Assembly: GCA_000002435.2 (NCBI GenBank)
Contig: CM018792.1
Length of the DNA stretch: 64,000 nt
Reading direction: 5' to 3' (one strand)
Source: Giardia intestinalis
Taxonomy: Eukaryota
Position numbers and translations under genes: made by a program. The notes under the pieces are model-generated. The model ran no database searches and was not told the origin of the DNA. It was given only the letters and a program-made list of their open reading frames with translations. Positions 4,029 through 53,068 of this stretch are shown one piece after another. How positions within the stretch are numbered: the stretch's first letter is position 1; the number at the start of each line of letters is the position of its first letter.

Positions 4029-6044
4029 ATGGACACTGCCTCGTCTGAGCCTGCAACAGTGGCCTCTAGTGTCCCGCAGTTTACCCTCAATGACCTCTAT
4101 GAACGGTTAGGTGATATACTAAGCAAAGATATCACGGGTATAGTCTACTCTCTCAAGGACTATCCGAGTCTCGTTGTAAAGGTCGCCCCACTAGGTTGCC
4201 TGGAAAAGGATAACACAGACGCTGTCCGACTCGAGCTGGCTGCCCTCCCCGAGCTCTCCCACCCAGGGGTTCTCAGGTATCATCAAGTGATCGAGCACAT
4301 GAATTTCGTCTACTTTATCACAGACCGTTACAACAAGACTCTCGGACGTCTTCTCATTGAGCATATGCAAATGAAGAGTCCTGTGCCCACCAGAGTGATC
4401 CTCTCAGCTATAAGACAGATCGCTACCGCCCTTGCCTACCTTCACAGTGTCAAAAGGGCAGATGCTGAGGGGCTTGTTCACCGCGATCTTAGGTCTACCA
4501 ATATCTCCATCAGTGCAGACGGTGAGCACTTCATCATCGCCGGCCTCGAACTCTGCAGGAACATCTTGTGGAGTGGAAGCACTCTTATAGGAATAGGGGC
4601 ACACACGGCCCCCGAGGTGCTCCTCCACAACGAGCCCAGCCCCGCCTCCGACGTGTGGAGCCTCGGGGTCATCATTTATGAACTAGTAACTCTAAGGATG
4701 CTGGACTTCCTGGAGGACAGGGAGCCAGAGGATGTCTTCGTTGATGGGTGGAGGCCAGACCTGAGCGGTGTCACTGATGGCTTCATGCAGAATGTTCTGG
4801 AGAGGATATTCGTGCTGGATCCTGGGAGGAGGCCGACGGCCAGGGAGCTGCATGAGATGCTCGACACAGCAGATATTTCGGATAACGAGCCGGAACCTTG
4901 GCAAGTGGCGCTGGAAAGTAAGCATGGTTCCTCGAAGATCACTGCGAGTAATACTCATGCCAAGATCGCGCTTTTGGAGGAGGAGGTCAAAACTAAGTTG
5001 AACGAGATTGCTACTCTTAAGGCAACCCTTGAGAACAGGCCAAGTGAAGTCGACGCCCTGGGACAGGAGCCCAGAATTAAGTTAACTAGGATCGACATGC
5101 TTGAAGATCAATGTAGAGAGTACCTAGCCATGATAAAAGTACTAGACAGTAGAATTACACAGATTAGCATTGCGCTAGGTCTATCCAATTCTCAATTCAG
5201 CCTCTTCTTGCTACCCAGATTTATACGCGCCGCACGCACGAATGAAACAGAGACCGTCCGAATGCTGGTCAATGAGGGAGTCTACATCGGTCAGCGTGAC
5301 GAGAAAAAGATGACGGCTCTTATGCATGCGGCCCAGCAGGGGCACACTGGTCCCATTGAATTGCTTGTTAAAGAAGAGAGGGGCCTCCAGGACAAGAACG
5401 GCTGGACTGCGCTCATGCACGCCGCACACTGCAACCACCCTGAAGCAGTCGAGATTCTCGCCCCTTACGAACGTGGGAGAAGAAACAAGAACAGTCGAAC
5501 TGCTCTAATGGTCGCTGCAGAGAATGGCAGTGCAGAAGCTGCTTCCATTTTGGGCCCGTACGAGGATAACCTAATCGACAGTGAAGGCAACACGGCTCTG
5601 ATGATTGCTGAGAAAGCAGGACACAAACTTGTTGCAGAGATTCTCAGTCCGGATGAAGTGGATGGGTGTACAGCGCTTATGCAAGCAGCGAAATGTGGTC
5701 GCATAGATGCGGTAAAACTCCTAATAAAAAACAAAAGCCGTGCACAAAACATACTTGGAACAACTGCTCTCATGGAAGCAGCGTCCTGGGGCCATTCAGA
5801 AATTGTGAAACTGCTAATTGATCATGAAGGAGGCATGCAGGACATCTTTGGAGCGACTGCTCTCATAACTGCAATACGTAATAATCAACTGGAATGTGCT
5901 AAACTTTTAGTAGAGAGGGAAAGGGATATAAAAGATAAGTATGATAAGACTGCCCTTGATATAGCTAAGGCTATGGTCTATCCTGAGATGGTGTCTCTCC
6001 TTAGCAGTAGTGTATCTAGCACCGGCGGCCACAATGACTCTTAG
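4029..6044 (+). CDS. NEK-family kinase-like protein, predicted pseudokinase, with C-terminal ankyrin repeats
   Basis: The N-terminal kinase fold has a VAIK-like lysine (LVVKVAP), HRDLRSTN, TAPE and DVWSLGVIIYEL, but no GxGxxG loop, and DFG is replaced by AGL. The catalytic-loop K is replaced by R. The C-terminal half carries at least six TALMxAA ankyrin repeats. An AT-rich initiator (caaaataaaaccaggATG) precedes the start and an AGTAAAC poly(A)-like motif follows the stop by about 20 nt. Confidence 0.8.
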   Translation: MDTASSEPATVASSVPQFTLNDLYERLGDILSKDITGIVYSLKDYPSLVVKVAPLGCLEKDNTDAVRLELAALPELSHPGVLRYHQVIEHMNFVYFITDRYNKTLGRLLIEHMQMKSPVPTRVILSAIRQIATALAYLHSVKRADAEGLVHRDLRSTNISISADGEHFIIAGLELCRNILWSGSTLIGIGAHTAPEVLLHNEPSPASDVWSLGVIIYELVTLRMLDFLEDREPEDVFVDGWRPDLSGVTDGFMQNVLERIFVLDPGRRPTARELHEMLDTADISDNEPEPWQVALESKHGSSKITASNTHAKIALLEEEVKTKLNEIATLKATLENRPSEVDALGQEPRIKLTRIDMLEDQCREYLAMIKVLDSRITQISIALGLSNSQFSLFLLPRFIRAARTNETETVRMLVNEGVYIGQRDEKKMTALMHAAQQGHTGPIELLVKEERGLQDKNGWTALMHAAHCNHPEAVEILAPYERGRRNKNSRTALMVAAENGSAEAASILGPYEDNLIDSEGNTALMIAEKAGHKLVAEILSPDEVDGCTALMQAAKCGRIDAVKLLIKNKSRAQNILGTTALMEAASWGHSEIVKLLIDHEGGMQDIFGATALITAIRNNQLECAKLLVERERDIKDKYDKTALDIAKAMVYPEMVSLLSSSVSSTGGHNDS

Positions 6045-6221
6045 GCTCTCTGCGACCCACAAGTAAACTGCCGCTCTCTTAGAGGGGCAAGGCCTGGAGG
6101 AGCAGCGTTGCAGGCTGGTGCCTCGGGTTTCTAGCCTGCGCCCGGCACCATAGAGCAGGTGCTCCGAGCTGCCCGCCCACGGTATTTCTGAGGAGCCGCG
6201 ATCGCAATTGGGAGGCAAAGA

Positions 6222-6974
6222 ATGGCATTTATTGAGGCGGCCAAGGAGAACAGGCTGGACTACGTCAGGGCCCACAAGGCCGCGGACGCAGGCCAGAGGG
6301 ACGCAGACGGGAAGACGGCGCTCATGTGGGCCGCCGAGGCCGGGCACACCGCCGTCGCCCTGGAGCTGGTCGACGCAGAGGCGGGCCTGGTCTCGAACGA
6401 CGGGTCCTTTGCGCTGATTGCGGCGGCAAAGAGGGGGAACCTCGAGCTGATCCAGGCCCTTTTCGAGAAGGAGGGGAGGCTGCGGGACGCCGGCAAGCTC
6501 TCCGCCCTCAACCACGCCTCCAGGGCGAAGCAGTTCGAGGCGGCCAAGGTCCTCCGGCTGAAGACCATCGAGACGATGGACGCGGCGATGCTGGAGCAGC
6601 TCCGGCAGAGGGTCGCGGCCACCTACACCGAGATGGCCAAGAAGTCGCAGCAGGCCGAGGTCAAGAGCCACAACATGGCCATCTTCCGCTCGTTCTTCGA
6701 GGCGTTCTACTCCCTCTCCTGCTCGGGGATCGACCAGGGGGCGGAGATCTCGGAGGAGCAGCTGAACAAGTCCCTCGAGAAGTGCCTGGGCGAGATCCGC
6801 AAGCTCCTCAACTCGAAGAAGTACACGAAGTGCGTGAAGTGCCGCGCCAACGCCCCCAACCTGGTCTGCATGCCGTGCAAGCACTACGTCCTCTGCAAGG
6901 ACTGCGGGAAGGACGTGGCCAGCGAGGTCTGTCCTGGTCTGCGAGAACCCCCTTGGCACACTAGTAGGCACTGA
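6222..6974 (+). CDS. ankyrin-repeat / C-terminal RING-finger (MIB/IAP-type) protein; 3' end appears frameshifted
   Basis: Ankyrin repeats ([36 protein letters not shown]) are followed by [35 protein letters not shown], which fits C3HC4 through the seventh ligand. The eighth Cys is missing in this frame (CPGLRE) and is restored in the +1 frame (CPVCE). The region is very GC-rich, so long antisense ORFs overlap it. Confidence 0.7.
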
Positions 6975-7341
6975 TAGTACCGCTAAGGCATATGTAGGAG
7001 TATATGGCTGCTCCCGGTGTACAGCACCAACAGCTCTAACAACAGCTGGCATGACTGCTGCTGTGTGTACCTCCTGTGACAGTGGTAAGAAGCCCAACAA
7101 GGATGGCAGTGGGTGTGTAGTATGCTCTGACACCAACTGCAAGAGCTGTGTGGTGGACGGTGTGTGTGGGGAGTGCAACAGTGGCTTCAGTCTAGACAAT
7201 GGCAAGTGTGTGTCTATGAGCACGAACAAGAGCGGGCTCTCCACGGGGGCCATCGCTGGCATCTCCGTCGCGGCGGTTGTCGTCGTGGGGGGCCTCGTGG
7301 GCTTCCTCTGCTGGTGGTTCGTGTGTAGAGGGAAGGCGTAG
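6838..7341 (+). pseudogene. VSP (variant-specific surface protein) 3' fragment: CXXC-rich segment, transmembrane helix and CRGKA tail
   Basis: The called ORF (7051-7341) encodes [20 protein letters not shown] and [13 protein letters not shown] motifs, then [26 protein letters not shown] and a terminal CRGKA, the conserved VSP C-terminus. There is no signal peptide or N-terminal domain. The same frame stays open upstream to 6838, including CSRC. Confidence 0.6.
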
Positions 7342-7561
7342 GTACTTAGGTAGCAAACGCTGTGAGTGGTGTAGGGACTTCATAGGGTGCTGGCAGTGGG
7401 ATGCGCACTAGAGTTGAGGGTGGAATCGTGCGAACCAGCTATTTAATCTAGCATCGTTATCACCATTGTTAGAAAACAGGGCACTCGGTGCTATCTTAGA
7501 TAAAAGCCAGACATAGGCAGTTCTAGGGGCGATCGAAGTAGTGAGAGCTTTAAAATTTAAA

Positions 7562-7855
7562 ATGACGAGACCAACTCTGGAATTGCACATTAAGCTCGGT
7601 ATGACCATCTTTGACACCACGTTCAACAGATGTAAAGTGGCCCATGCAAAGGACGTCATAGTGCAAGCCCATTTAGACGATAAAATTAAGACTCTCCGAG
7701 AGCGCGCGCTTTCTAGTCTGTCTGTCTCCGTCACTCACGGTGATCTTCATTTTCAAGGATGTCCCCTTGATCCTCAGCAAACTGTAGCAGAGGCAAGATT
7801 GTCTAACGGGGATAGGCTCTACCTTTTTTACTCGGTTCCACGAGGATTGGAATGA
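7562..7855 (+). CDS. small ubiquitin-like (beta-grasp) protein, about 97 aa
   Basis: The ATG at 7562 is preceded by an AT-rich initiator (ctttaaaatttaaaATG). The sequence LELHIKLGMTIFDTTF...LHFQGCPLDPQQTVAEARLSNGDRLYLF resembles ubiquitin beta1-beta2 and the LIFAGKQLEDGRTLSDY...LHLV region, but there is no terminal GG. Confidence 0.45.
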   Translation: MTRPTLELHIKLGMTIFDTTFNRCKVAHAKDVIVQAHLDDKIKTLRERALSSLSVSVTHGDLHFQGCPLDPQQTVAEARLSNGDRLYLFYSVPRGLE

Positions 7856-7878
7856 AGTTAATTCTTTGCCACATCTTT

Positions 7879-8361
7879 TCAACGTTGTAGATAGGTTCTC
7901 ATTAGCACAAGGAAGTCATTATTGGTTGATTCCCTTACTAGCCATCTAGTGTTAAATTCAGCAGCAAGAGCGGTCTCCTCCTCGGCCTTCAGGCCCAGGC
8001 GCGCGGCGGCCCGGTTGGCGAAGTAGACGGCGCGCTGGTCTGGGGGCTCGTTGTTCGCGGCCGAGACCTCGATCGCCTGGGTGAAGAGCCGGATCGCCTC
8101 CTGGAAGTCCTCCGCCTTGAAGGCGGCGTTGCCCTGCGCCTTGAGCTCGCTGGAGCTTGTGCTGGAGACCGCCGGCGCCTTCGCCCCGCTCAGGATCTGC
8201 TCCAGGTCGCCGTTGCCGTGCCTGACGTCCTTGAGTCCGAAGCAGTCCCGGAGGCAATCGATGGCGACGTCCAGGTTGTCGGTGTCCTCAACGGCTTGCG
8301 CAGCCCTGAGGTAGAGGAGGTACTCGACGACGAGCCTCTTGGCGGCCAGCCTTGTCGTCAT
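7879..8361 (-). pseudogene. truncated duplicate of the SGT (Sgt2/SGTA-like) gene
   Basis: The first 134 codons are identical to the full-length SGT gene at 21757-22638. Identity ends exactly at the inverted-repeat boundary (7961), after which 26 unrelated codons run to a stop. The 5' initiator region is retained. Confidence 0.7.
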
Positions 8362-11300
8362 CTATTTTTAAGCAGTCGTTCACTCCCTCTCAAAGTACTC
8401 TCGCTGGTCCATGATCACAGAAACCACCGCGTTCATGTCGCGCCCGAGCCTGACATATGCCTCCCTCACCCGGTTGTAGTTCAGGTCGCCACCACAGATC
8501 CCGATGATCGTGGCGATGTTGTCCTCGTCGTCCGCGGTCAGCGGAGGGGGCTGCTCTGCAGGCTGCGGCGGCGCCCTTTCCCTTGGAATAAGGATCCCTC
8601 TCCCGGCCATCCCTGCCTCGATCATGTTCAGGTAGAGGTGGAGCACCTCAAGGAGCAAGTCGCGATCCTCGTTGAATCTCAGCACCAGATTGGGGCTCCA
8701 GTCGGATATCTGGGTTGTAAACATCTCCAAGAAGTTCGGTGTCTGGAGTATCTGCTCTAGCTCCTCGGTGCTGTACATGTGTGGTCTGTGGCTGTGTCTG
8801 GCCGCGCCCATGTGCCGGAGGGTGTCCTCGAGATCCTCTTCTGTCGGATCTTCGGCGATGATGGCAGCTGCCAGATCCATGTTGTTATTAGCCAGCTCGA
8901 GCGATATCTGCGCCAGCCGTGGCCTACAGGAAAAGGTCTCTACTAGCTGTGCGACGAGGTCCGAGTTGTTGCTAACTGGGTCTAGTTCTAAGGCATCTGA
9001 ATTGGATCCGGACGAGGAGTCTTGCACCTCAGCATGAGGATCTCGCGAAGCAGCCGATTCAATTTGCCGGGCCTGCGCGACCCCTGCGGCAGAACTGCTG
9101 GGAGGCGCTTCAAGGATCCTTCCGCGAGGTTTAGCCTGAGTGAATACTACGGTATCCTGAGTGATATTTGGAACCTTCGACAGTAGAATACCGTCATCAT
9201 TCAAGATAGATGCGTTGAGAATGAGACGGATGGTGGGCGCCTCTGCGGAGATGGCCTCAGCAACCTTCTTCCGCAGATCGCCGACGGTGCTATCTGGAAA
9301 AAACTCGAATGTCCTTGGCTCGAATTCCTTCACTGTGGACCTAACCGCGATCCTGATGCAATCAGACATTTTTTGTTTGCATAGACTAATAATTCACTTT
9401 ATCTCAGAGGGTGCGGTCACGGTTATCTCACCGGAGTAACAATCCGTTGTGCTCTGTGAGTGCCGATTGCTCTGCGGAACCATTTCCAGCGCCCTGACAA
9501 ATGAACGGTTAGAGCGTAGGGCCTTGTTAGCATACTGTGTATCCTCGCCTGCCACAAACTCTAACCCTAAGAAGTCGGCCATTTCGACATTGTTTGCTGA
9601 TGTTTCATGCCTAGACGCGAGGTGCGGCGCCTTCGACTGCGCTCGGCTCTTAGGCTTGAAAGCATTTGCTGCATGTAAATCCCCAAGCTGCCTTTCCTCT
9701 CTTCCGCAGGCGGCAGTGTTTTTCCGAGCAGGTAAAGAAACATCGCCAACTGATTGATGCCTTGCTGACAACTCAAGTTTGTTCTGAGACATATTGCCTT
9801 GAAGCTTACTCCCGTTATTAGGTAGGATGTTTCCCCCTTGAGACCTATTAGAAGTTAGTGAATTCTTGACTGTCGGGACGATTTCTTCTTGAGTTGAGCA
9901 GGAAACTACATCCCTCGCCGAAGCAGAAAGGTGACCTTGCTTGAGTGAGGCACCAAGCTCGCCTGCAATAGAGCTGCCACTCAGACGTGTACACGCAAGA
10001 TTAGCTGAGCTATCGTTTTGACAGATGATGATAGAATGGCTCTCCCCTTCTGTGTGAGGAAACTCAACAATGGTGTCCCGGCCGGAAAAGGAAACCCGGT
10101 CCTTTGTGGAAGTCGCTGGTTGCCCTTTAGCTCGTTTCTCGACCGCTTCAACACCTGCACTGGCCATGTTCTGCTTGCTAGTGTACCTGCTCTCCGAAAA
10201 TAACTCACCAGAGGTAACATTAGCATCATCCTCACTCATCGATGAAGTGGAATGCTGAGTCTCGACCTGCGATAGCCTGACATGTCGGCTTTCAAGGCAG
10301 TCAGCCGTAACAACTGTGTGGCCAAGCTTACTCAGGTGCTTCCCGTCGAAGTCGACGCTTTTGTTTTGCCGTAAGATGGACTGAAAGTTGGAATTGCGTA
10401 GTATGGAAGAGTTAGACAGCGCATGTCGCACACTCTGCTGAGATGAAGGATTGTCCGCGTCACATGTCCTTGGCGTCTTTGCACTAACTCTGAATTCATT
10501 GGTAGTCGTGGCACTATTTTGTGATAGAGATGTTCTGCTCAGCGAGTAGGGATCTTTGCTTTCCTGCCCCAGCGGAAGCGTGACCAGGCTTATGTTGCTA
10601 TCGCTGGAGGGTGTCTGTGGGAGGAGAGGGGCCGGACGCAGACGCTGAAAATCTGTTGAATGAGGTGCTCTGTCGCTATAGACTGGTGGTGAAGCTACTG
10701 AATCCCCTGTCAGAGGGAGAGTTGGCGGTATATAAATGGGGGTTATAGAAGTGTTTTGCCTGTCGTTCCTCATGTTGCTAAGCGGAACGTGCTTCGGTAT
10801 CTGAGTATCCTTGTAAATCGTAGAATCTTCTGTCAGGTGGCTTTCATTCTTTACATCCAAGTCAATCACTGTGGTCGAGGAAGCATGCGCCGAATGGACA
10901 TCGCCGGGGTCTTCCGACGAGGAATCCGAATAGTAATAGTAAGACTCTTCGTCGCTCTCCATTGAGTTGTAGTCCAGTTGACTGTGGTCACTGTCCTTCT
11001 TCTTGCTAACTGGTTCCTGTTTTTGCGCAGCAGGAAGTGTTGCCCTGGACTGAGTAGACGACGTAGTAATGGGCATTATGTCGGGCATTTTTCCGGTGAT
11101 GATAGGGAAAACCCGGGTAGCTTTTGGCCGAGTAGACTCTGACTTGGCAGAGTTTGTTACAGGGAAGGGCAAGCTTGCTATCTGCGTGATTAGGGGGAGC
11201 TGAGTATATGGCACCTTTTTCAACGGCAATGACACTGATGTTGCATTTTGCAGGGTCGTCAGTCGGTTTGGAGACACAATGACGGGCGCGGGCTGTACAT

Positions 11301-47456: not shown

Positions 47457-47525
47457 CTGGATCTCCAATCCGTGATAGGAAGGTTACTAGCAGAAGTGAA
47501 TCTGTCTCTAAAAAAGTTAAGTGGC

Positions 47526-49856
47526 ATGTTTTCCGAGACGATCGGACGGCTCTACAAGAACCACGTCGTCATAGGGAATGGTTCGTTTGGAAAGGTTTTT
47601 AGCGCCCAACGGGTATCAGACAGCAAAACAGTGGCCGTGAAGGAGGTTGACACAACTGGTGCTGGACTCGCAGAGCGGATGATTATCCTCGCTGAATACA
47701 CATATTACCCGCACATTGTTGATCCTAATGTTGTCACATGTTATACAACACACTTCGATAAGGAGTCCGGACAGCTATACCTCGAGATGGAATATTGTCC
47801 CGGTGGATCTCTTTCAGACCTGATCAAGAGCCAACGAGTGAGGAAGCAACCCCTCCCCGAGCGGACTATTTGGCAGATTTTCAAAGGATTGGCCTCAGCA
47901 CTTGTTTATCTTCATTCCCCAGAAAAGAAACCCACCGTGGGTGCAATCATCCACAGAGACATTAAACCGACCAATATTGTCTTTACCAAGGATGGTATCG
48001 CTAAGATATGTGACTTCGGCCTCTCTCGAGGGCTGCACGAACTGTCGATGGCCTCTAGCAGAGTAGGAACAGATGCTTACATGGCTCCAGAGGTCAATGA
48101 CGGCGAGTACAATGAAAAAGTAGACGTATGGTCGCTAGGATGCGTCATTTTGGAACTGTGCAGCCTTCATAAGCCAAAGCCCCGCGACCCCATCATCCTG
48201 GAGGCATACTCACCACAGCTAGCATCAATACTTAGAAACTGTCTGACAGTCTCACCAGACGATCGCATATCCAGCGCTAGGCTGCTCCACTTACTATCGA
48301 CGCAAGAGTCCGAAGCATTGTCACGCAAGCCATCCACATACTATGGTTTAGATGACAATGACGAAGATACTGAAGAGGACGCGGGGGACTTAGAGCTACG
48401 AGAACAGAAGGAGAAGATCCGCGCTCAGGAACAGATGCAGCAGGAATGCAACGCAGAGGCGGTAGTAGAGGAAAATGAAAATGCAAGAACAGAAGCAGAC
48501 GCCGAGATGGAATCCTTGGTCTTTTTCGACCAAAACATCACTCTTCCAACTACACATAGTACAGAAGCTGAAGACGACAATGAGCACTGTTCTCAATTGG
48601 ATGCAACGTCTGTCATTCATGAAGTCCCAGAATTGACGGCTACATCTATCCTTAAGCAGTTAGATTTTGCCAGCAAAGACCCAGAACTGGTTCGATCGTT
48701 ACTGTTACAGTATGCATCTGCTTTGGAGACCCGTGACAACGAGATTGCTCAGCTCAAGGGTCTGCTCAGTTTCCAGAATCAACGACTCCCCTTGTCCACG
48801 GCACGCCCCAGTATAGAGACACCGATCTGCATGAGCACTGACACTCATGCAGAGTCCATAGACTTCACTGTCAAAGAGCCGACACAGTTTGGTACTATTA
48901 CCGAGAAAGAATCAATCTGTCCATCTCCACGGTCTTTTGATTGCAGCATGGGGATTGTGCTAGATGATTTGGTTGCAAATCAGCATAGATTGAAGACGAA
49001 TATAGAGATAGATATCTTGCAACGCTCTATTAAAGCCAAGGACGCCATTATTGATAGTATGAAGAAGCAATCGGAAGCAGATGCCAAAGGAACAAAGGTC
49101 TTTATAGATGCTCTTTATAAAGACATCAATACTTTAGAATCCGAGGTGCGAGAAAAGAACATTATCATTGATGAGCTTTGCGAGGCTATTGAAAAGAATA
49201 GTACACTGTTGGACTCCGCCAAACGAAGGGGAAGTCTAGGCATGTCCACAGATGGCTCATTTACAGACAGAAGCAAGTCTGCCACACCCGAAGGTAGGCG
49301 TCCCCGTAGAAATTCACTATACAGTTCTGATATGGCCGACAAGGAGCAGGAGATCCAGCACTTGAAGGACGAGCTTATCAAGCAGCAGGCAGAAAGCGCC
49401 GCCCTCAGGGAACAGAAGTTTATCAAGCAGGAGTGCATCATCCAAGACTTGACCGCGTCTCTCCGCGCAGCTACCGCCGAGATAGACTCTCTTCGACAAA
49501 AGGTTGCACTGCAAAGCCCAGTGCAAAGCAGCTTGTCTTCAAGCACGCTTACTGTGGTTAAAATGCCGAGCCTTGAGCTATCACAGTATGTATTCCAAAT
49601 CAATGAGTTGGAGCAAATTAAGGAAACACTCTCAGAGGAGCTAGAAGCAAAGGACTCAACAATACAGCAACTACGCGAAGCAATACTGCACCAGGAGATC
49701 TCCTTTACTAAGTTGCGCGAGGCCTCAGAGGCCACCCAAGCAGAAAATAGGAAGCTTCATGACACCATCAGGATGCAGGCTGGTACCATCTCGGCCTTGG
49801 TTCGGAAGAGGAGCCCTCAATTATCCTCAAATGCAAGCCCCCCTGGTAAGCAATAA
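47526..49856 (+). CDS. NEK-family Ser/Thr kinase (catalytically intact) with a C-terminal coiled-coil region
   Basis: GNGSFGKV, VAVKEV, HRDIKPTN, DFG, GTDAYMAPE and DVWSLGCV are all present, followed by coiled-coil sequence. The ATG at 47526 has a ctaaaaaagttaagtggcATG initiator; the track start is GTG at 47472. Confidence 0.85.
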   Translation: MFSETIGRLYKNHVVIGNGSFGKVFSAQRVSDSKTVAVKEVDTTGAGLAERMIILAEYTYYPHIVDPNVVTCYTTHFDKESGQLYLEMEYCPGGSLSDLIKSQRVRKQPLPERTIWQIFKGLASALVYLHSPEKKPTVGAIIHRDIKPTNIVFTKDGIAKICDFGLSRGLHELSMASSRVGTDAYMAPEVNDGEYNEKVDVWSLGCVILELCSLHKPKPRDPIILEAYSPQLASILRNCLTVSPDDRISSARLLHLLSTQESEALSRKPSTYYGLDDNDEDTEEDAGDLELREQKEKIRAQEQMQQECNAEAVVEENENARTEADAEMESLVFFDQNITLPTTHSTEAEDDNEHCSQLDATSVIHEVPELTATSILKQLDFASKDPELVRSLLLQYASALETRDNEIAQLKGLLSFQNQRLPLSTARPSIETPICMSTDTHAESIDFTVKEPTQFGTITEKESICPSPRSFDCSMGIVLDDLVANQHRLKTNIEIDILQRSIKAKDAIIDSMKKQSEADAKGTKVFIDALYKDINTLESEVREKNIIIDELCEAIEKNSTLLDSAKRRGSLGMSTDGSFTDRSKSATPEGRRPRRNSLYSSDMADKEQEIQHLKDELIKQQAESAALREQKFIKQECIIQDLTASLRAATAEIDSLRQKVALQSPVQSSLSSSTLTVVKMPSLELSQYVFQINELEQIKETLSEELEAKDSTIQQLREAILHQEISFTKLREASEATQAENRKLHDTIRMQAGTISALVRKRSPQLSSNASPPGKQ

Positions 49857-50116
49857 AGTGGGGCTTTTGGATTTTCTATCAATCGTTCTATGGAAAAATA
49901 TAATTCAACAGCATCTAAAACCGGTTAATCTGGAGGTGAAAATATAGTGTTGTGAAATCCTGAAACCCTTTGTCTAGCTTATCTTAGCGGCTGCTTGTTA
50001 CACAGCAGTAAATTACTCTCTCCCGGACGATCCAGTAATGACAAACATGTCTTTCGCGTGAGAGGTGTCTCTAGATGATGATTCATAATTAACTTGAACA
50101 TAAAAGTCAGCAATCT

Positions 50117-50713
50117 CTAGAACGATTCCTGGAACGTTCGTGACTGTTCTTCCAGGACCACAATCGGCACGCTGACCCGCGGAGAGTAGCAAATGCGGTG
50201 GAAGACAGACCAGTCGAGGGCCCCGGAGCTCGCGATTGTCAGGTCCTGGATGAGGGGCGGGAGCTGGAGGATATCCCCGAGTAGAATGATCTTGTCGAAA
50301 GGGGCGACCAAGAAGGGCGCAAACTCGTGCTCTGAAAGGCGCGCCGCCTCCTCGACAATCAGGTACCTGCGGTGGCCACCTTCGTCTGCGATAGACGCAG
50401 TAGTACTTCTCACCAACTTGGAATGGTGGGAGATGTGATTAGAGGAAATGTGGTCATAGTCGACCAGAATGTCGTTGTAACTATTCGTTCGCGATATATG
50501 GGACCCGCCACTGAAGCAAGAAAGTTGATTGTACATTGATCTGCCATATCCACCGTAGACCTTTGAGCTACCCTTTAAGGGATCAAAGGAAAGGGAATCT
50601 TCAAGGCCATCTGTGGCCACGTCAGTGAAGTAGCGCAGATATATGCTAAATCCAGAGGTGGTGTTGACGATGATGGTCGCCGAGCTCAAGAGTTTGTGAT
50701 TGAAGAAATTCAT
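50117..50713 (-). CDS. orphan SF1B (Upf1-like) helicase core fragment covering motifs II-IV only, degenerate; possible pseudogene
   Basis: RRYLIVEEAARLSEHEFAPFLVAPFDKIILLGDILQLPPLI...ALDWSVFHRI...IVVLEEQSRTFQE aligns collinearly to Upf1 [38 protein letters not shown]...SLFERL...IRLQVQYRMHP. The DE pair (DEST) is changed to VE (VEEA) and QYRMHP to QSRTFQ. There is no Walker A and no motifs V or VI. It has its own AT-rich initiator (ccagaaaATG). Confidence 0.45.
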   Translation of the reverse strand: MNFFNHKLLSSATIIVNTTSGFSIYLRYFTDVATDGLEDSLSFDPLKGSSKVYGGYGRSMYNQLSCFSGGSHISRTNSYNDILVDYDHISSNHISHHSKLVRSTTASIADEGGHRRYLIVEEAARLSEHEFAPFLVAPFDKIILLGDILQLPPLIQDLTIASSGALDWSVFHRICYSPRVSVPIVVLEEQSRTFQESF

Positions 50714-50842
50714 TTTCTGGAACTCTAAACTCTAAATTCAAAGATTAAAGATTGGCCTCGGGATTGGGGTCGAGTGAGATTAATCTAGCGTTAAGTATGC
50801 AGTTGCCAATAGCTTTCCGTGGAGACTCAGTAGCAGATGAAT

Positions 50843-52759
50843 TTAGAGGCACGTAAATCCAAAGAAGGAAAAGATCAAAGCGTAGATGTTGTCCTCTGTC
50901 GGATATGTGGTCATTGCCTTTGTTTTTGCGTATAGCTTTTTATAGCATGATTCTATAGTTGCACCATCGCCGTTTGCTTGGGTGGAAATTGCCAGATGAA
51001 CTTCGTCTAGCTTCTTCGCTAACAACTCAGGGGAAAGGTGAAGTAGGATCTTCCCTATATGTGCTCGAAATGCACGCTCGTACTTCTGAACGTTATCACC
51101 TCGTGGTTGTGTGTCAGTAGGAGCGTTAGATGCTGCGATCTTCTGTACACCAGGGCATTCGGTGGGCACCGTGAGGCACTGTGCCTTTAGGTTCTTCTGC
51201 TTCAACGACGGTTCCTGATCGTTCTGAGTGGTTAAGAGTTGGCTGAGACACCCCAAAAACCTGTCCCCCTTGTCGTTTTTATAATAGGAGAGCTTTCCTA
51301 CAACACCATCAAGAATGTCTGAATAAGCTGTGGTCAACGGTGGAGACCGTCCACTGCAGAAGTCACAGCACCATGCTGGGTCTGTGGAATGGTCCTCAAC
51401 ACCACTATTGAAGTAATCTAACAAAACGCGGCGTCTGCACTTCCGTTGTAAGCAGAAGGAGAAGAAGCTATACAAAGAATACAACTCAAAATCGGATCCA
51501 TCTCTCTGGATACGTGTGACAGCGCCGGATACGTCTGCGCTGTCAAACAAGACAAGGCTGAGGGCTGGCTCTGAGTCACGCCCTGCTCGCCCAGACTCCT
51601 GATAGAACCCCTCCATGGAGCGGGGGATATTATAGTGAACCACTAATCTGACGTTAGATCTATCTATCCCCATGCCAAATGCAATAGTGGCAACGATTAT
51701 CTGCATGTCACTGGGGTCCCCAGCTTCTGACGTTTGCTTGCTTGAATCGTCCTTGACCCAATCCATGAGAATTTGCATCTTAGTGTCCTGGGAAAGCTTT
51801 GCATGGAAGTGCTGCGCATTAAAGCCCTCATCAGCGAGGCGCCTAGCAACGGCTTCTGTCTCGTCTCTGGTATAACAATAAACTATGACTGCACCAAGCG
51901 ATTTAGGATACTCCGCCGAACAGGACCTGTGCCTACTTCTTTGCTCAGGTCGCGTGTGCCTCGAGGCAGCAAGGCCACGGGGACCTGCTACGCATGCTTG
52001 ATAATTTTTAAGATAATCCAGAAGGAGCGCAATCTTAGACGAATTGGGCCCAACATACATGATACGATAGTAGAGATTTCTTCTATCAAACGACCTGATA
52101 AAGAGCTTAAACGAACTGTTAAGCTGCAAGCATGAGACAATGTCGATGGCCGTGTACTTTGTGGCTGTTGCCGTCAACGCTATGATTGGTATTTCAGGAA
52201 AATTTGTGCGTAGCGAAGACAGTCCACGGTAGCTAGATCGAAAGGTATTGCCCCAATCGGTTAAAACGTGACACTCATCCACTGCAATGAAGCCCACCAT
52301 GCCATTTGTCACCATGGCTTTGAGAAGATGCACAAACTCTTCAAGGCGGAATGTCTCTGGGGTGACATAGAGCAAGGAGATGGACCCAGGGTTTGTTCGC
52401 ATCCTATCGAATGCTTGAATCCGCGTATTCATGGAGGTGGAGGAGTTAACGGTGAATGCGGTGATACCAAGAGAACGAAGCTTGGTCACCTGGTCATCCA
52501 TGAGAGAAATCAACGGAGAAATGACGACCGCTGTCTTCTTGCTGTATACTGCGGCCAGCTGGTATATTAGTGATTTGCCGGCCCCTGTGGGGAAAATAAC
52601 CAACGTATCATTGCCCTCTACAATGGAGATGATTGCCTCTAGCTGCTGATCTCTGAATTGGGCCAATCCAAACACAGTGTGTAACACCTCGTGATACCTG
52701 GTTAGGTGTTCCGCTACATCTGCAGTGTGTCCATCAGAGGCATCTGTGTCTACAGACAT
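50843..52759 (-). CDS. RecQ-family DNA helicase
   Basis: FPTGAGKSLIYQL, VISPLISLMDDQV, DECH and IIALTATAT are present. The helicase-C region (IVYCYTRDETEA, IVATIAFGMGIDRSNVRLVVHYNIPRSMEGFYQESGRAGRD) and a Zn/RQC-like LLDYF...CCDFC follow. The ATG at 52757-52759 is used; the track start is TTG. Confidence 0.9.
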   Translation of the reverse strand: MSVDTDASDGHTADVAEHLTRYHEVLHTVFGLAQFRDQQLEAIISIVEGNDTLVIFPTGAGKSLIYQLAAVYSKKTAVVISPLISLMDDQVTKLRSLGITAFTVNSSTSMNTRIQAFDRMRTNPGSISLLYVTPETFRLEEFVHLLKAMVTNGMVGFIAVDECHVLTDWGNTFRSSYRGLSSLRTNFPEIPIIALTATATKYTAIDIVSCLQLNSSFKLFIRSFDRRNLYYRIMYVGPNSSKIALLLDYLKNYQACVAGPRGLAASRHTRPEQRSRHRSCSAEYPKSLGAVIVYCYTRDETEAVARRLADEGFNAQHFHAKLSQDTKMQILMDWVKDDSSKQTSEAGDPSDMQIIVATIAFGMGIDRSNVRLVVHYNIPRSMEGFYQESGRAGRDSEPALSLVLFDSADVSGAVTRIQRDGSDFELYSLYSFFSFCLQRKCRRRVLLDYFNSGVEDHSTDPAWCCDFCSGRSPPLTTAYSDILDGVVGKLSYYKNDKGDRFLGCLSQLLTTQNDQEPSLKQKNLKAQCLTVPTECPGVQKIAASNAPTDTQPRGDNVQKYERAFRAHIGKILLHLSPELLAKKLDEVHLAISTQANGDGATIESCYKKLYAKTKAMTTYPTEDNIYALIFSFFGFTCL

Positions 52760-53068
52760 AACGACTCTTCCAACGCCAAGCAAGTATGCGAGTATGGAAA
52801 GCTTGCTGGGGCAGGAAACAGGTCAAGGCCCAATTTTAATTAATCTTGCATAAGGAGGCCTGCTCTCCTACACTACACCCACTCCCGGCTTGCCTGTATA
52901 TCTTCTTTGTCCGTTCCATGCACTGGAGCATCCAGAAGAATCCAGAAGCATGAAATCCGATGCATTAAAATTATACGTTCGCTTGCTAATTTGCTATGTC
53001 CTTTAAAACAGTTTAATAATGATTATTAATAATGAAATTTTTGACAGTAAAATTTCTCCCTAGATAGC

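Follow-up and report, generated by a model that had tools for sequence, protein, structure and literature searches.

The stretch of DNA analysed here, a 64,000-nucleotide (nt) window of contig CM018792.1 from the Giardia intestinalis assembly GCA_000002435.2 (isolate WB, assemblage A1), carries at positions 50117..50713 on the minus strand an ATG-to-TAG open reading frame (ORF) of 198 amino acids (aa) that matches GL50803_14917 (XP_001708412.1) exactly and is annotated as a hypothetical protein. The ORF lies between two genes that serve as synteny anchors. Upstream of it stands a RecQ/Sgs1 helicase (50843..52783, minus strand; Pfam DEAD, Helicase_C and RecQ_Zn_bind), a separate gene with orthologues in DH (assemblage A2), P15 (assemblage E), GS (assemblage B) and an assemblage C/D contig, and downstream, in convergent orientation, stands a Ser/Thr kinase (47472..49856, plus strand; Pfam Pkinase) that occupies the same position in DH, P15 and GS. 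The end of RecQ and the start of the ORF are ~126-129 nt apart, and the kinase stop codon lies 260 nt past the ORF stop. Taken with its homology to three full-length proteins (P0125, P0126 and P0127), our analysis indicates that this ORF is probably a relic, still at its original chromosomal position, of a ~1,370-1,460-aa Upf1-like superfamily 1B (SF1B) helicase of the Aquarius/ZNFX1 branch, in all likelihood without an independent function.

The helicase character of the ORF, which a first-pass annotation had proposed from the letters alone as a motif II to IV block standing next to RecQ, proved to be real. Residues ~116-192 match SF1B helicases, and motifs II, III and the start of IV are all contained in the last ~83 residues. 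Pfam AAA_11 aligns to residues 93-155 with an E-value of 6e-5 and 23.4 bits, under the 27-bit cut-off, and a phmmer search of PDB sequences returned Aquarius as the best match (E 0.035, residues 117-193), followed by ZNFX1 and Nam7/Upf1. When 1.84 billion representatives were searched with a profile made from the ORF and a single relative, 167 proteins matched at E<=1e-3, and the same two-sequence profile matched full-length Giardia helicases at 1e-59 to 1e-116. The assignment to the Upf1 family therefore stands at the level of the Upf1-like SF1B superfamily, and the PDB and profile matches place the closest relatives in Aquarius and ZNFX1 and not in Upf1 proper.

Read from its N-terminus, the encoded sequence retains a coherent part of the helicase core. 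Residues 11-26 (SATIIVNTTSGFSIYL; 50636..50683, minus) form the RecA1 strand that precedes motif II and align with segments of KIIAMTCTHAALKR type in Aquarius proteins, with T18 invariant in an alignment of Giardia, Kipferlia and bona fide Aquarius sequences (alignment A6). They are followed by a low-complexity linker, predicted to be disordered, at residues 30-114 (50372..50626, minus), for which AlphaFold returned predicted local distance difference test (pLDDT) values of 32-37 and the ratio of non-synonymous to synonymous rates (omega) between WB and P15 is 0.46. This linker is a lineage-specific expansion that is also present in the full-length P15 protein and is much shorter in GS. The description of the N-terminus as low complexity is thus accurate for residues ~30-114 and misses the conserved strand at 11-26. 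Motif II reads RYLIVEEAARL (50336..50368, minus), motif III follows at 50243..50290 (minus; IILLGDILQLPPLIQD), and the start of RecA2 with motif IV, VPIVVLEEQSR, lies at 50138..50170 (minus), where alignment A6 shows that the invariant Q190 and R192 are kept. Both the acidic pair of motif II (IVEEAARL) and the GDxxQLPP signature of motif III (LLGDILQLPPLI) are therefore present in the ORF.

The motif II of Upf1 contains the pair DE. A catalytic substitution of DE to VE had been read into the ORF, and this reading arose from a one-residue misalignment against Upf1. Residues E121, E122, A123 and A124 are invariant, and the EEAA form is normal for the family, being typical of Aquarius (MEEAAQ) and ZNFX1 (VEEAAE) and forming motif II of all full-length Giardia copies. 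What the ORF lacks is equally clear. Inspection of the ORF and of its Pfam matches bore out the reported absence of Walker A (GxxGxGKT/S) and of motifs V and VI, and motif Ia is missing as well. The RecA2 family AAA_12, present in the P15 fragment and in the full-length proteins, has no match in the 198-aa ORF, in which RecA2 is reduced to its first strand and the motif IV Q and R. The AlphaFold model of the 198 residues has a mean pLDDT of 50, with residues 36-113 below 50, and shows no confident fold. From the missing P-loop, motif Ia and RecA2 beyond one strand, together with the lack of a predicted fold, we infer that any 198-aa product cannot be a helicase.

The syntenic loci of other assemblages, retrieved through the neighbouring RecQ, provide the framework for understanding how this fragment came about. 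A longer gene stands at this position outside assemblage A: 436 aa in P15, 1,372 aa in GS, at least 380 aa in the C/D contig and at least 677 aa in a second assemblage B contig. In GS (AHHH01000016) the order is TTL, Cdc14, RecQ, the 1,372-aa SF1 helicase GSB_152074 (ESU44778.1), the kinase and a coiled-coil protein, which is the order of the window, with a full-length helicase carrying AAA_11 and AAA_12 where WB has the 198-aa ORF. RecQ is followed directly by the N-terminal part of the long gene in the C/D contig and in the second assemblage B contig, the latter of human gut metagenome origin. The distance from RecQ to the kinase is 986 nt in WB, 1,838 nt in P15 and 4,642 nt in GS. The ancestral order RecQ, helicase, kinase thus survives in assemblage B and, at least for the RecQ-helicase junction, in the C/D contig. 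Far from being the orphan it was taken for, the ORF has a clear parent gene that is full-length at the syntenic position in assemblage B. The suggestion that it is a decaying remnant of a larger helicase gene is upheld by this gene and by the mapping of both deletion junctions.

The first of these junctions, at the 5' end (50703..50704, minus), is identical in WB, DH and P15. Homology to the P15 full-length gene begins at the same base (L012 8996, codon 999) in WB and in the P15 fragment, 10 nt past the relic ATG, and ~3.06 kb is missing relative to GS (GS coordinates 5860-8919). The deletion took out the native promoter and start codon together with codons 1-~998, and with these Walker A and motif Ia; in the full-length proteins motifs I and Ia fall at residues ~770-860, within the deleted segment. 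Alignment of the spacers shows that the relic start codon and the bases next to it (ATGAATTTCT; 50704..50713, minus) derive from the spacer between RecQ and the helicase, and their assemblage B counterpart, CAGAAATGAGACCCCAATTTCT, is non-coding spacer that lies ~160 nt upstream of the real start codon. Because the ATG and first ~10 nt align with non-coding spacer in B, the initiator is a spacer ATG that has fallen in frame by chance, and not a start of the gene's own that has been retained, as the first-pass annotation had supposed. The remaining 129 nt between the relic ATG and the last base of the RecQ ORF, stop included (50714..50842, minus), have their homologue in that part of the assemblage B spacer which lies nearest to RecQ, and the native helicase promoter region is absent. 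Since the junction is common to WB, DH and P15, the ~3.06-kb loss is placed in the common ancestor of A and E, where a deletion ran from the RecQ-helicase spacer to codon ~998, removing the predicted N-terminal alpha-solenoid region too and joining the spacer ATG in frame to codon ~999.

The second lesion, at the 3' end, is confined to assemblage A. Comparison of WB, DH and P15 identified a 10-nt insertion, GAATCGTTCT (50119..50128, minus), that is present in WB and DH and absent from P15. The frameshift that it causes comes directly behind EEQ(A/S)R and generates the TAG stop at 50117-50119, so that the TFQESF tail before the stop is a product of the insertion and frameshift. An apparent change of motif IV from QYRMHP to QSRTFQ accordingly falls into two parts, the invariant Q and R being kept and TFQ being altered through this lesion. 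Beyond the insertion a stretch of 19 nt (AGAGATTGCTGACTTTTAT; 50100..50118, minus) retains residual, out-of-frame homology to the PEIADLY codons, and directly after it, at ~50099/50100, lies the assemblage A deletion junction, at which ~870 nt covering motifs V and VI (P15 L008 ~7645-8516) are missing in WB and DH. These 19 nt are all the out-of-frame homology found before the junction, and the scenario of a mis-split gene with a frameshifted continuation does not hold. A multiple alignment shows the non-coding 3' flank that extends from there to the kinase stop codon (49857..50099, minus) to be a homologue of the sequence 3' of the fragment at the P15 RecQ locus, with 71-81% identity to L008 8517-8771. 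In assemblage A, then, the 10-nt insertion shifted the frame after motif IV and the ~870 nt beyond were deleted.

Assemblage E holds a relic together with an intact copy, and the comparison of the two is informative about the forces acting on the fragment. At its RecQ locus P15 has a 436-aa ORF that starts at the same 5' junction and reaches through motif VI, and on another contig (ACVC01000769), among unrelated neighbours that include ankyrin-repeat, Nek-type kinase and ABC-transporter genes, it has the intact 1,464-aa copy GLP15_4901 (EFO60786.1). The two are 99.3% identical over exactly their shared 1,297 ungapped nt, with nine differences (five synonymous, four non-synonymous). Synonymous divergence between A and E is 0.62 for the fragment, 0.63 for RecQ and 0.61 for the kinase, and the truncation is older than the A/E split. 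Just 3' of the identical stretch the P15 RecQ-locus copy resembles the true 3' coding end of the GS gene, but with stop codons, and the relocated P15 copy has a different tail. Such near-identity over exactly the shared stretch, with decay outside it and despite a truncation that predates the A/E split, is a signature of gene conversion and not of selection on the fragment. The simplest reading of these sequences is that the P15 RecQ-locus copy is the decayed resident gene, in which gene conversion, with the relocated functional copy as donor, would recently have replaced the interior, and whose 3' flank is the decayed original 3' coding end.

Truncated pseudogenes can stay similar to a functional paralogue through gene conversion, and the mechanism by which the relic formed is nothing new; it is a known kind of object. 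The P15 relic is like such pseudogenes in that near-identity is confined to the stretch in common with the intact copy, and differs from them in that it is the relic that occupies the ancestral locus, the intact copy having been relocated; for assemblage A, conversion is a putative event. We propose that in the A/E lineage the Aquarius-like helicase was copied to a new locus and the resident copy was then whittled down stepwise. Motifs II-IV in assemblage A would owe their good preservation to past gene conversion by a functional paralogue, or to recent truncation, and not to selection on the fragment.

The relic interpretation has in its favour an intact syntenic orthologue in the outgroup GS, mapped truncating lesions and disabling alleles that segregate, and it has to be weighed against several observations that point the other way. 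All 17 of the 17 invariant columns of alignment A6 are kept in WB (T18, E121, E122, A123, A124, E130, G146, D147, Q150, L151, P153, S169, R173, P183, L187, Q190 and R192). The ORF is open in WB, DH and P15. Omega of the core is 0.13 between WB and P15. With GS used for polarisation, the core of 79 codons shows seven non-synonymous changes and 12 synonymous ones on the WB branch after the A/E split (P ~0.008 when the neutral expectation allows for the transition bias). A Logan contig of WB type, identical to the window, passes through the whole ORF unbroken, so that a near-identical second copy may be absent from WB, and gene conversion in assemblage A is a step that we infer.

These observations are what an alternative explanation would lead us to expect, namely that a truncated protein of 198 aa (436 aa in E) has been domesticated, is expressed from the spacer ATG and is kept by selection. 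Such a protein might serve as a decoy or regulator, its motif II-IV surface binding the partners or RNA of the full-length helicase. The conserved ATG, the retention of every family-invariant residue of the covered block and an omega below 1 both on the A branch and between WB and P15 all agree with this explanation, which the first-pass annotation had also raised and which we regard as unlikely, the evidence being mostly against it. A 1-nt deletion just upstream of motif II, which removes the whole helicase block and cuts the ORF to 117 aa, is found in four independent assemblage A Logan samples (SRR3177745, SRR3177900, SRR445169 and SRR445172), and the nucleotide diversity of the ORF is high. 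In length the A and E versions are more than two-fold apart, and they retain different domains; the conserved stretch of P15 ends exactly where homology to the intact paralogue ends, with decay beyond. The fragment itself amounts to four strands of two RecA domains and a disordered linker of ~85 residues with no confident fold. Comparison of WB with DH revealed 16 nt differences (seven non-synonymous, nine synonymous) with a Nei-Gojobori omega of 0.23 and P 0.005, but 15 of the 16 are transitions, and after correction for this bias the signal is marginal (P 0.053).

The distribution of changes over the branches gives a more graded picture. On the E branch the same 79-codon core has eight synonymous and two non-synonymous changes, and on the WB-specific tip it has three non-synonymous and one synonymous. 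The core was thus constrained for most of the time since the A/E split, either directly or via conversion from a constrained paralogue, and this constraint looks to have been relaxed only recently. Gene conversion could be the source of the constrained pattern, as in P15. A hint of a paralogue comes from the four A2-like Logan contigs (L004-L007), all of which end within motif II, 23 nt past the 1-nt deletion (window ~50340-50375); their common end may mark the edge of a sequence repeated elsewhere, that is, of a full-length paralogue. The unbroken WB-type contig hints at the opposite. A search of JGI metagenomes with the P15 protein found no relative, in a collection that yielded no contig of this gene, and a degenerate DNA pattern for LGDILQLPPLI was found in none of the metagenome or prokaryotic genome contigs, which likewise are collections without any contig of the gene. 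A more specific form of the domestication alternative, in which assemblage A (WB and DH) has no intact copy at all and selection maintains the 198-aa piece as a small protein of helicase origin, acting for instance as a decoy for partners of a spliceosomal or RNA-surveillance helicase that has been lost, strikes us as improbable.

Giardia trans-splices a few split genes, among them Hsp90 and dynein heavy chains, and an ORF that covers an internal block of a helicase protein might on this precedent be the middle exon of a split gene. We consider this very improbable. The 3' intron motif CTRACACACAG, the motif covered by our split-gene search, is absent near the ORF, and its two single-mismatch matches in the window are at chance level and do not flank the ORF. 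Both ORF ends are ordinary deletion junctions against the syntenic full-length genes, a complete uninterrupted copy exists elsewhere in P15, and a tblastn search of the 64-kb window turned up no further piece of a helicase. An annotation or assembly artefact, in which a full-length gene was wrongly split or truncated in the WB assembly, is scarcely credible even though one Logan contig (L001) shows that homologues broken by stops and frameshifts do occur in assemblies. The WB interval between RecQ and the kinase measures 986 nt, well short of the 1,838 nt of P15 and the 4,642 nt of GS, and three further sources show the WB structure: the DH assembly, which is independent, an ENA metagenome contig and the Logan contig identical to the window.

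If the ORF is a relic, the identity of its parent acquires interest of its own. The full-length Giardia proteins (1,464 aa in P15, 1,372 aa in GS, and 1,395 and 1,346 aa in two Logan lineages) carry AAA_11 and AAA_12 in their C-terminal ~600 residues, and their N-terminal ~750 residues have no Pfam domain. When a profile of full-length metamonad proteins was searched against the PDB, ZNFX1 was the top match (5.2e-30), Aquarius was about equal (2.3e-28) and Upf1 scored lower (8.6e-24). Among the 40 best non-Giardia matches to the fragment profile, Aquarius_N_2nd was found in 15 and Aquarius_N_1st in 12, and NFX1-type zinc-finger families did not appear among the Pfam matches of these 40. Five of the six named matches are Aquarius/Cwf11/K12874 and one is ZNFX1-like. 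Six matches of 1,366-1,529 aa picked from the 167 all have Aquarius N-terminal domains, in a sample that its length range biases towards Aquarius. On these similarities we call the parent an SF1B helicase of the Aquarius/ZNFX1 branch, and it is possibly a very divergent Aquarius orthologue.

Aquarius (IBP160/Cwf11, KEGG K12874), the best PDB match of the fragment, is the SF1B helicase of the spliceosomal intron-binding complex. The Giardia family has in common with it the EEAA motif II, the GDxxQLPP motif III and an L(D/E)xQxR...E(I/L)AD(L/I) block after motif IV, and the parent resembles it in length (1,372-1,464 aa) and in layout, the helicase being C-terminal and preceded by a helical region at the N-terminus. 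The fragment departs from Aquarius in lacking motifs I, Ia, V and VI, and the full-length Giardia proteins depart from it in having no Pfam Aquarius_N_1st, _2nd or _3rd match at E<=0.01; nor did profile-profile comparison detect similarity between the Giardia N-terminal 750 aa and Aquarius N-termini (hhalign probability 0.15%). AlphaFold models parent residues 1-750 with a pLDDT of 48, which is low confidence, and as helical over residues 1-400, and a Foldseek search of this N-terminus against the PDB gave generic ARM/HEAT matches only (E>0.1). The region is therefore described here as an alpha-solenoid predicted at low confidence. ZNFX1 has the same EEAA motif II and is the top PDB match of the full-length profile, but its NFX1 zinc fingers are not found in the Giardia proteins. 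Upf1/Nam7 is another member of the Upf1-like SF1B superfamily, with its motifs in the same order, but it scores below Aquarius and ZNFX1, and a CH domain is not among the Pfam matches of the Giardia parent.

A 2012 inventory of spliceosomal proteins of Giardia (WB) lists no Aquarius homologue, naming Aquarius only for the human protein and in none of its passages on Giardia homologues (PMC3424538), and the parts of the literature that our search on Giardia and Aquarius covered held no report of a Giardia Aquarius. Should the parent be the Giardia Aquarius orthologue, it would add a new component to the parasite's reduced spliceosome inventory. A more immediate consequence concerns annotation. 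A comparative study that screened ORFs for links to virulence listed ORF 14917 among small, high-diversity ORFs taken as assemblage A-specific (Ankarklev et al. 2015; PMC4570179), and a literature search with the gene identifiers themselves returned no matches. As a probable helicase relic, ORF 14917 is not to be treated as a lineage-specific effector candidate, and the annotation of GL50803_14917 should be corrected to helicase relic. The locus also records a piece of history of the Giardia intestinalis complex, the relocation of a helicase in the A/E lineage and the stepwise reduction of its resident copy. If assemblage A does lack an intact copy and the piece is retained, there would be a functional difference between the human-infective assemblages A and B, and if the piece is retained by selection it would be a case of a protein created by deletion.

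The full-length helicase of the G. intestinalis complex evolves very fast for a candidate component of the core machinery. The P15 and GS proteins (L012 6001-10395 and L013 6001-10119) have 48% aa identity and a non-synonymous divergence (dN) of 0.48, compared with a dN of 0.116 for the neighbouring RecQ, whose orthologues in the species complex are 77-89% identical. In the loci that we compared, adjacency of RecQ and the helicase is seen only within the G. intestinalis complex. In Giardia muris (CM016928.1; L015 8001-13191) the Cdc14-RecQ pair is kept and an ankyrin-repeat gene follows RecQ in place of the helicase. A distant Giardia-like organism in the Logan dataset SRR31929897 (L014 3483-11041) has a 1,346-aa homologue just downstream of a LUC7 gene, which encodes a component of the U1 small nuclear ribonucleoprotein; this homologue overlaps a 791-aa ORF by 4 nt and has no adjacency to RecQ. 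In a single-cell or pooled-cyst dataset (Logan ERR3333382; L011 5839-6131) the sequence after RecQ is very AT-rich and unlike that of any other assemblage, and this continuation is possibly a chimeric amplification artefact.

A further homologue of the whole helicase, non-syntenic, was found in Logan SRR33769983 (L001 1200-5474), in which Walker A and motifs Ia, II, III, IV and V are recognisable and the frame is broken by five in-frame stops (TGA, TAA and TAG) and two frameshifts. This homologue may be a pseudogene from a further Giardia lineage or else the product of poor assembly. Its nucleotide identity of ~70% to both the E and the B genes indicates a third lineage, and we rejected it as the parent of the ORF because it is non-syntenic, about equally distant from those two genes and itself broken.

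Some minor features of the window complete the description of the locus. A scan for bacterial-type promoters and terminators gave results at chance level, this type of scan not being applicable to Giardia. An 81-aa ORF that lies antisense to the helicase core of the relic (window 50193-50438, plus strand) is unsupported and probably just reflects the composition of the sense frame. The RecQ ORF as listed at 50843-52783 begins with TTG and encodes 646 aa, 8 codons more than its 638-aa orthologues in DH and P15, and its true start is probably the downstream ATG.

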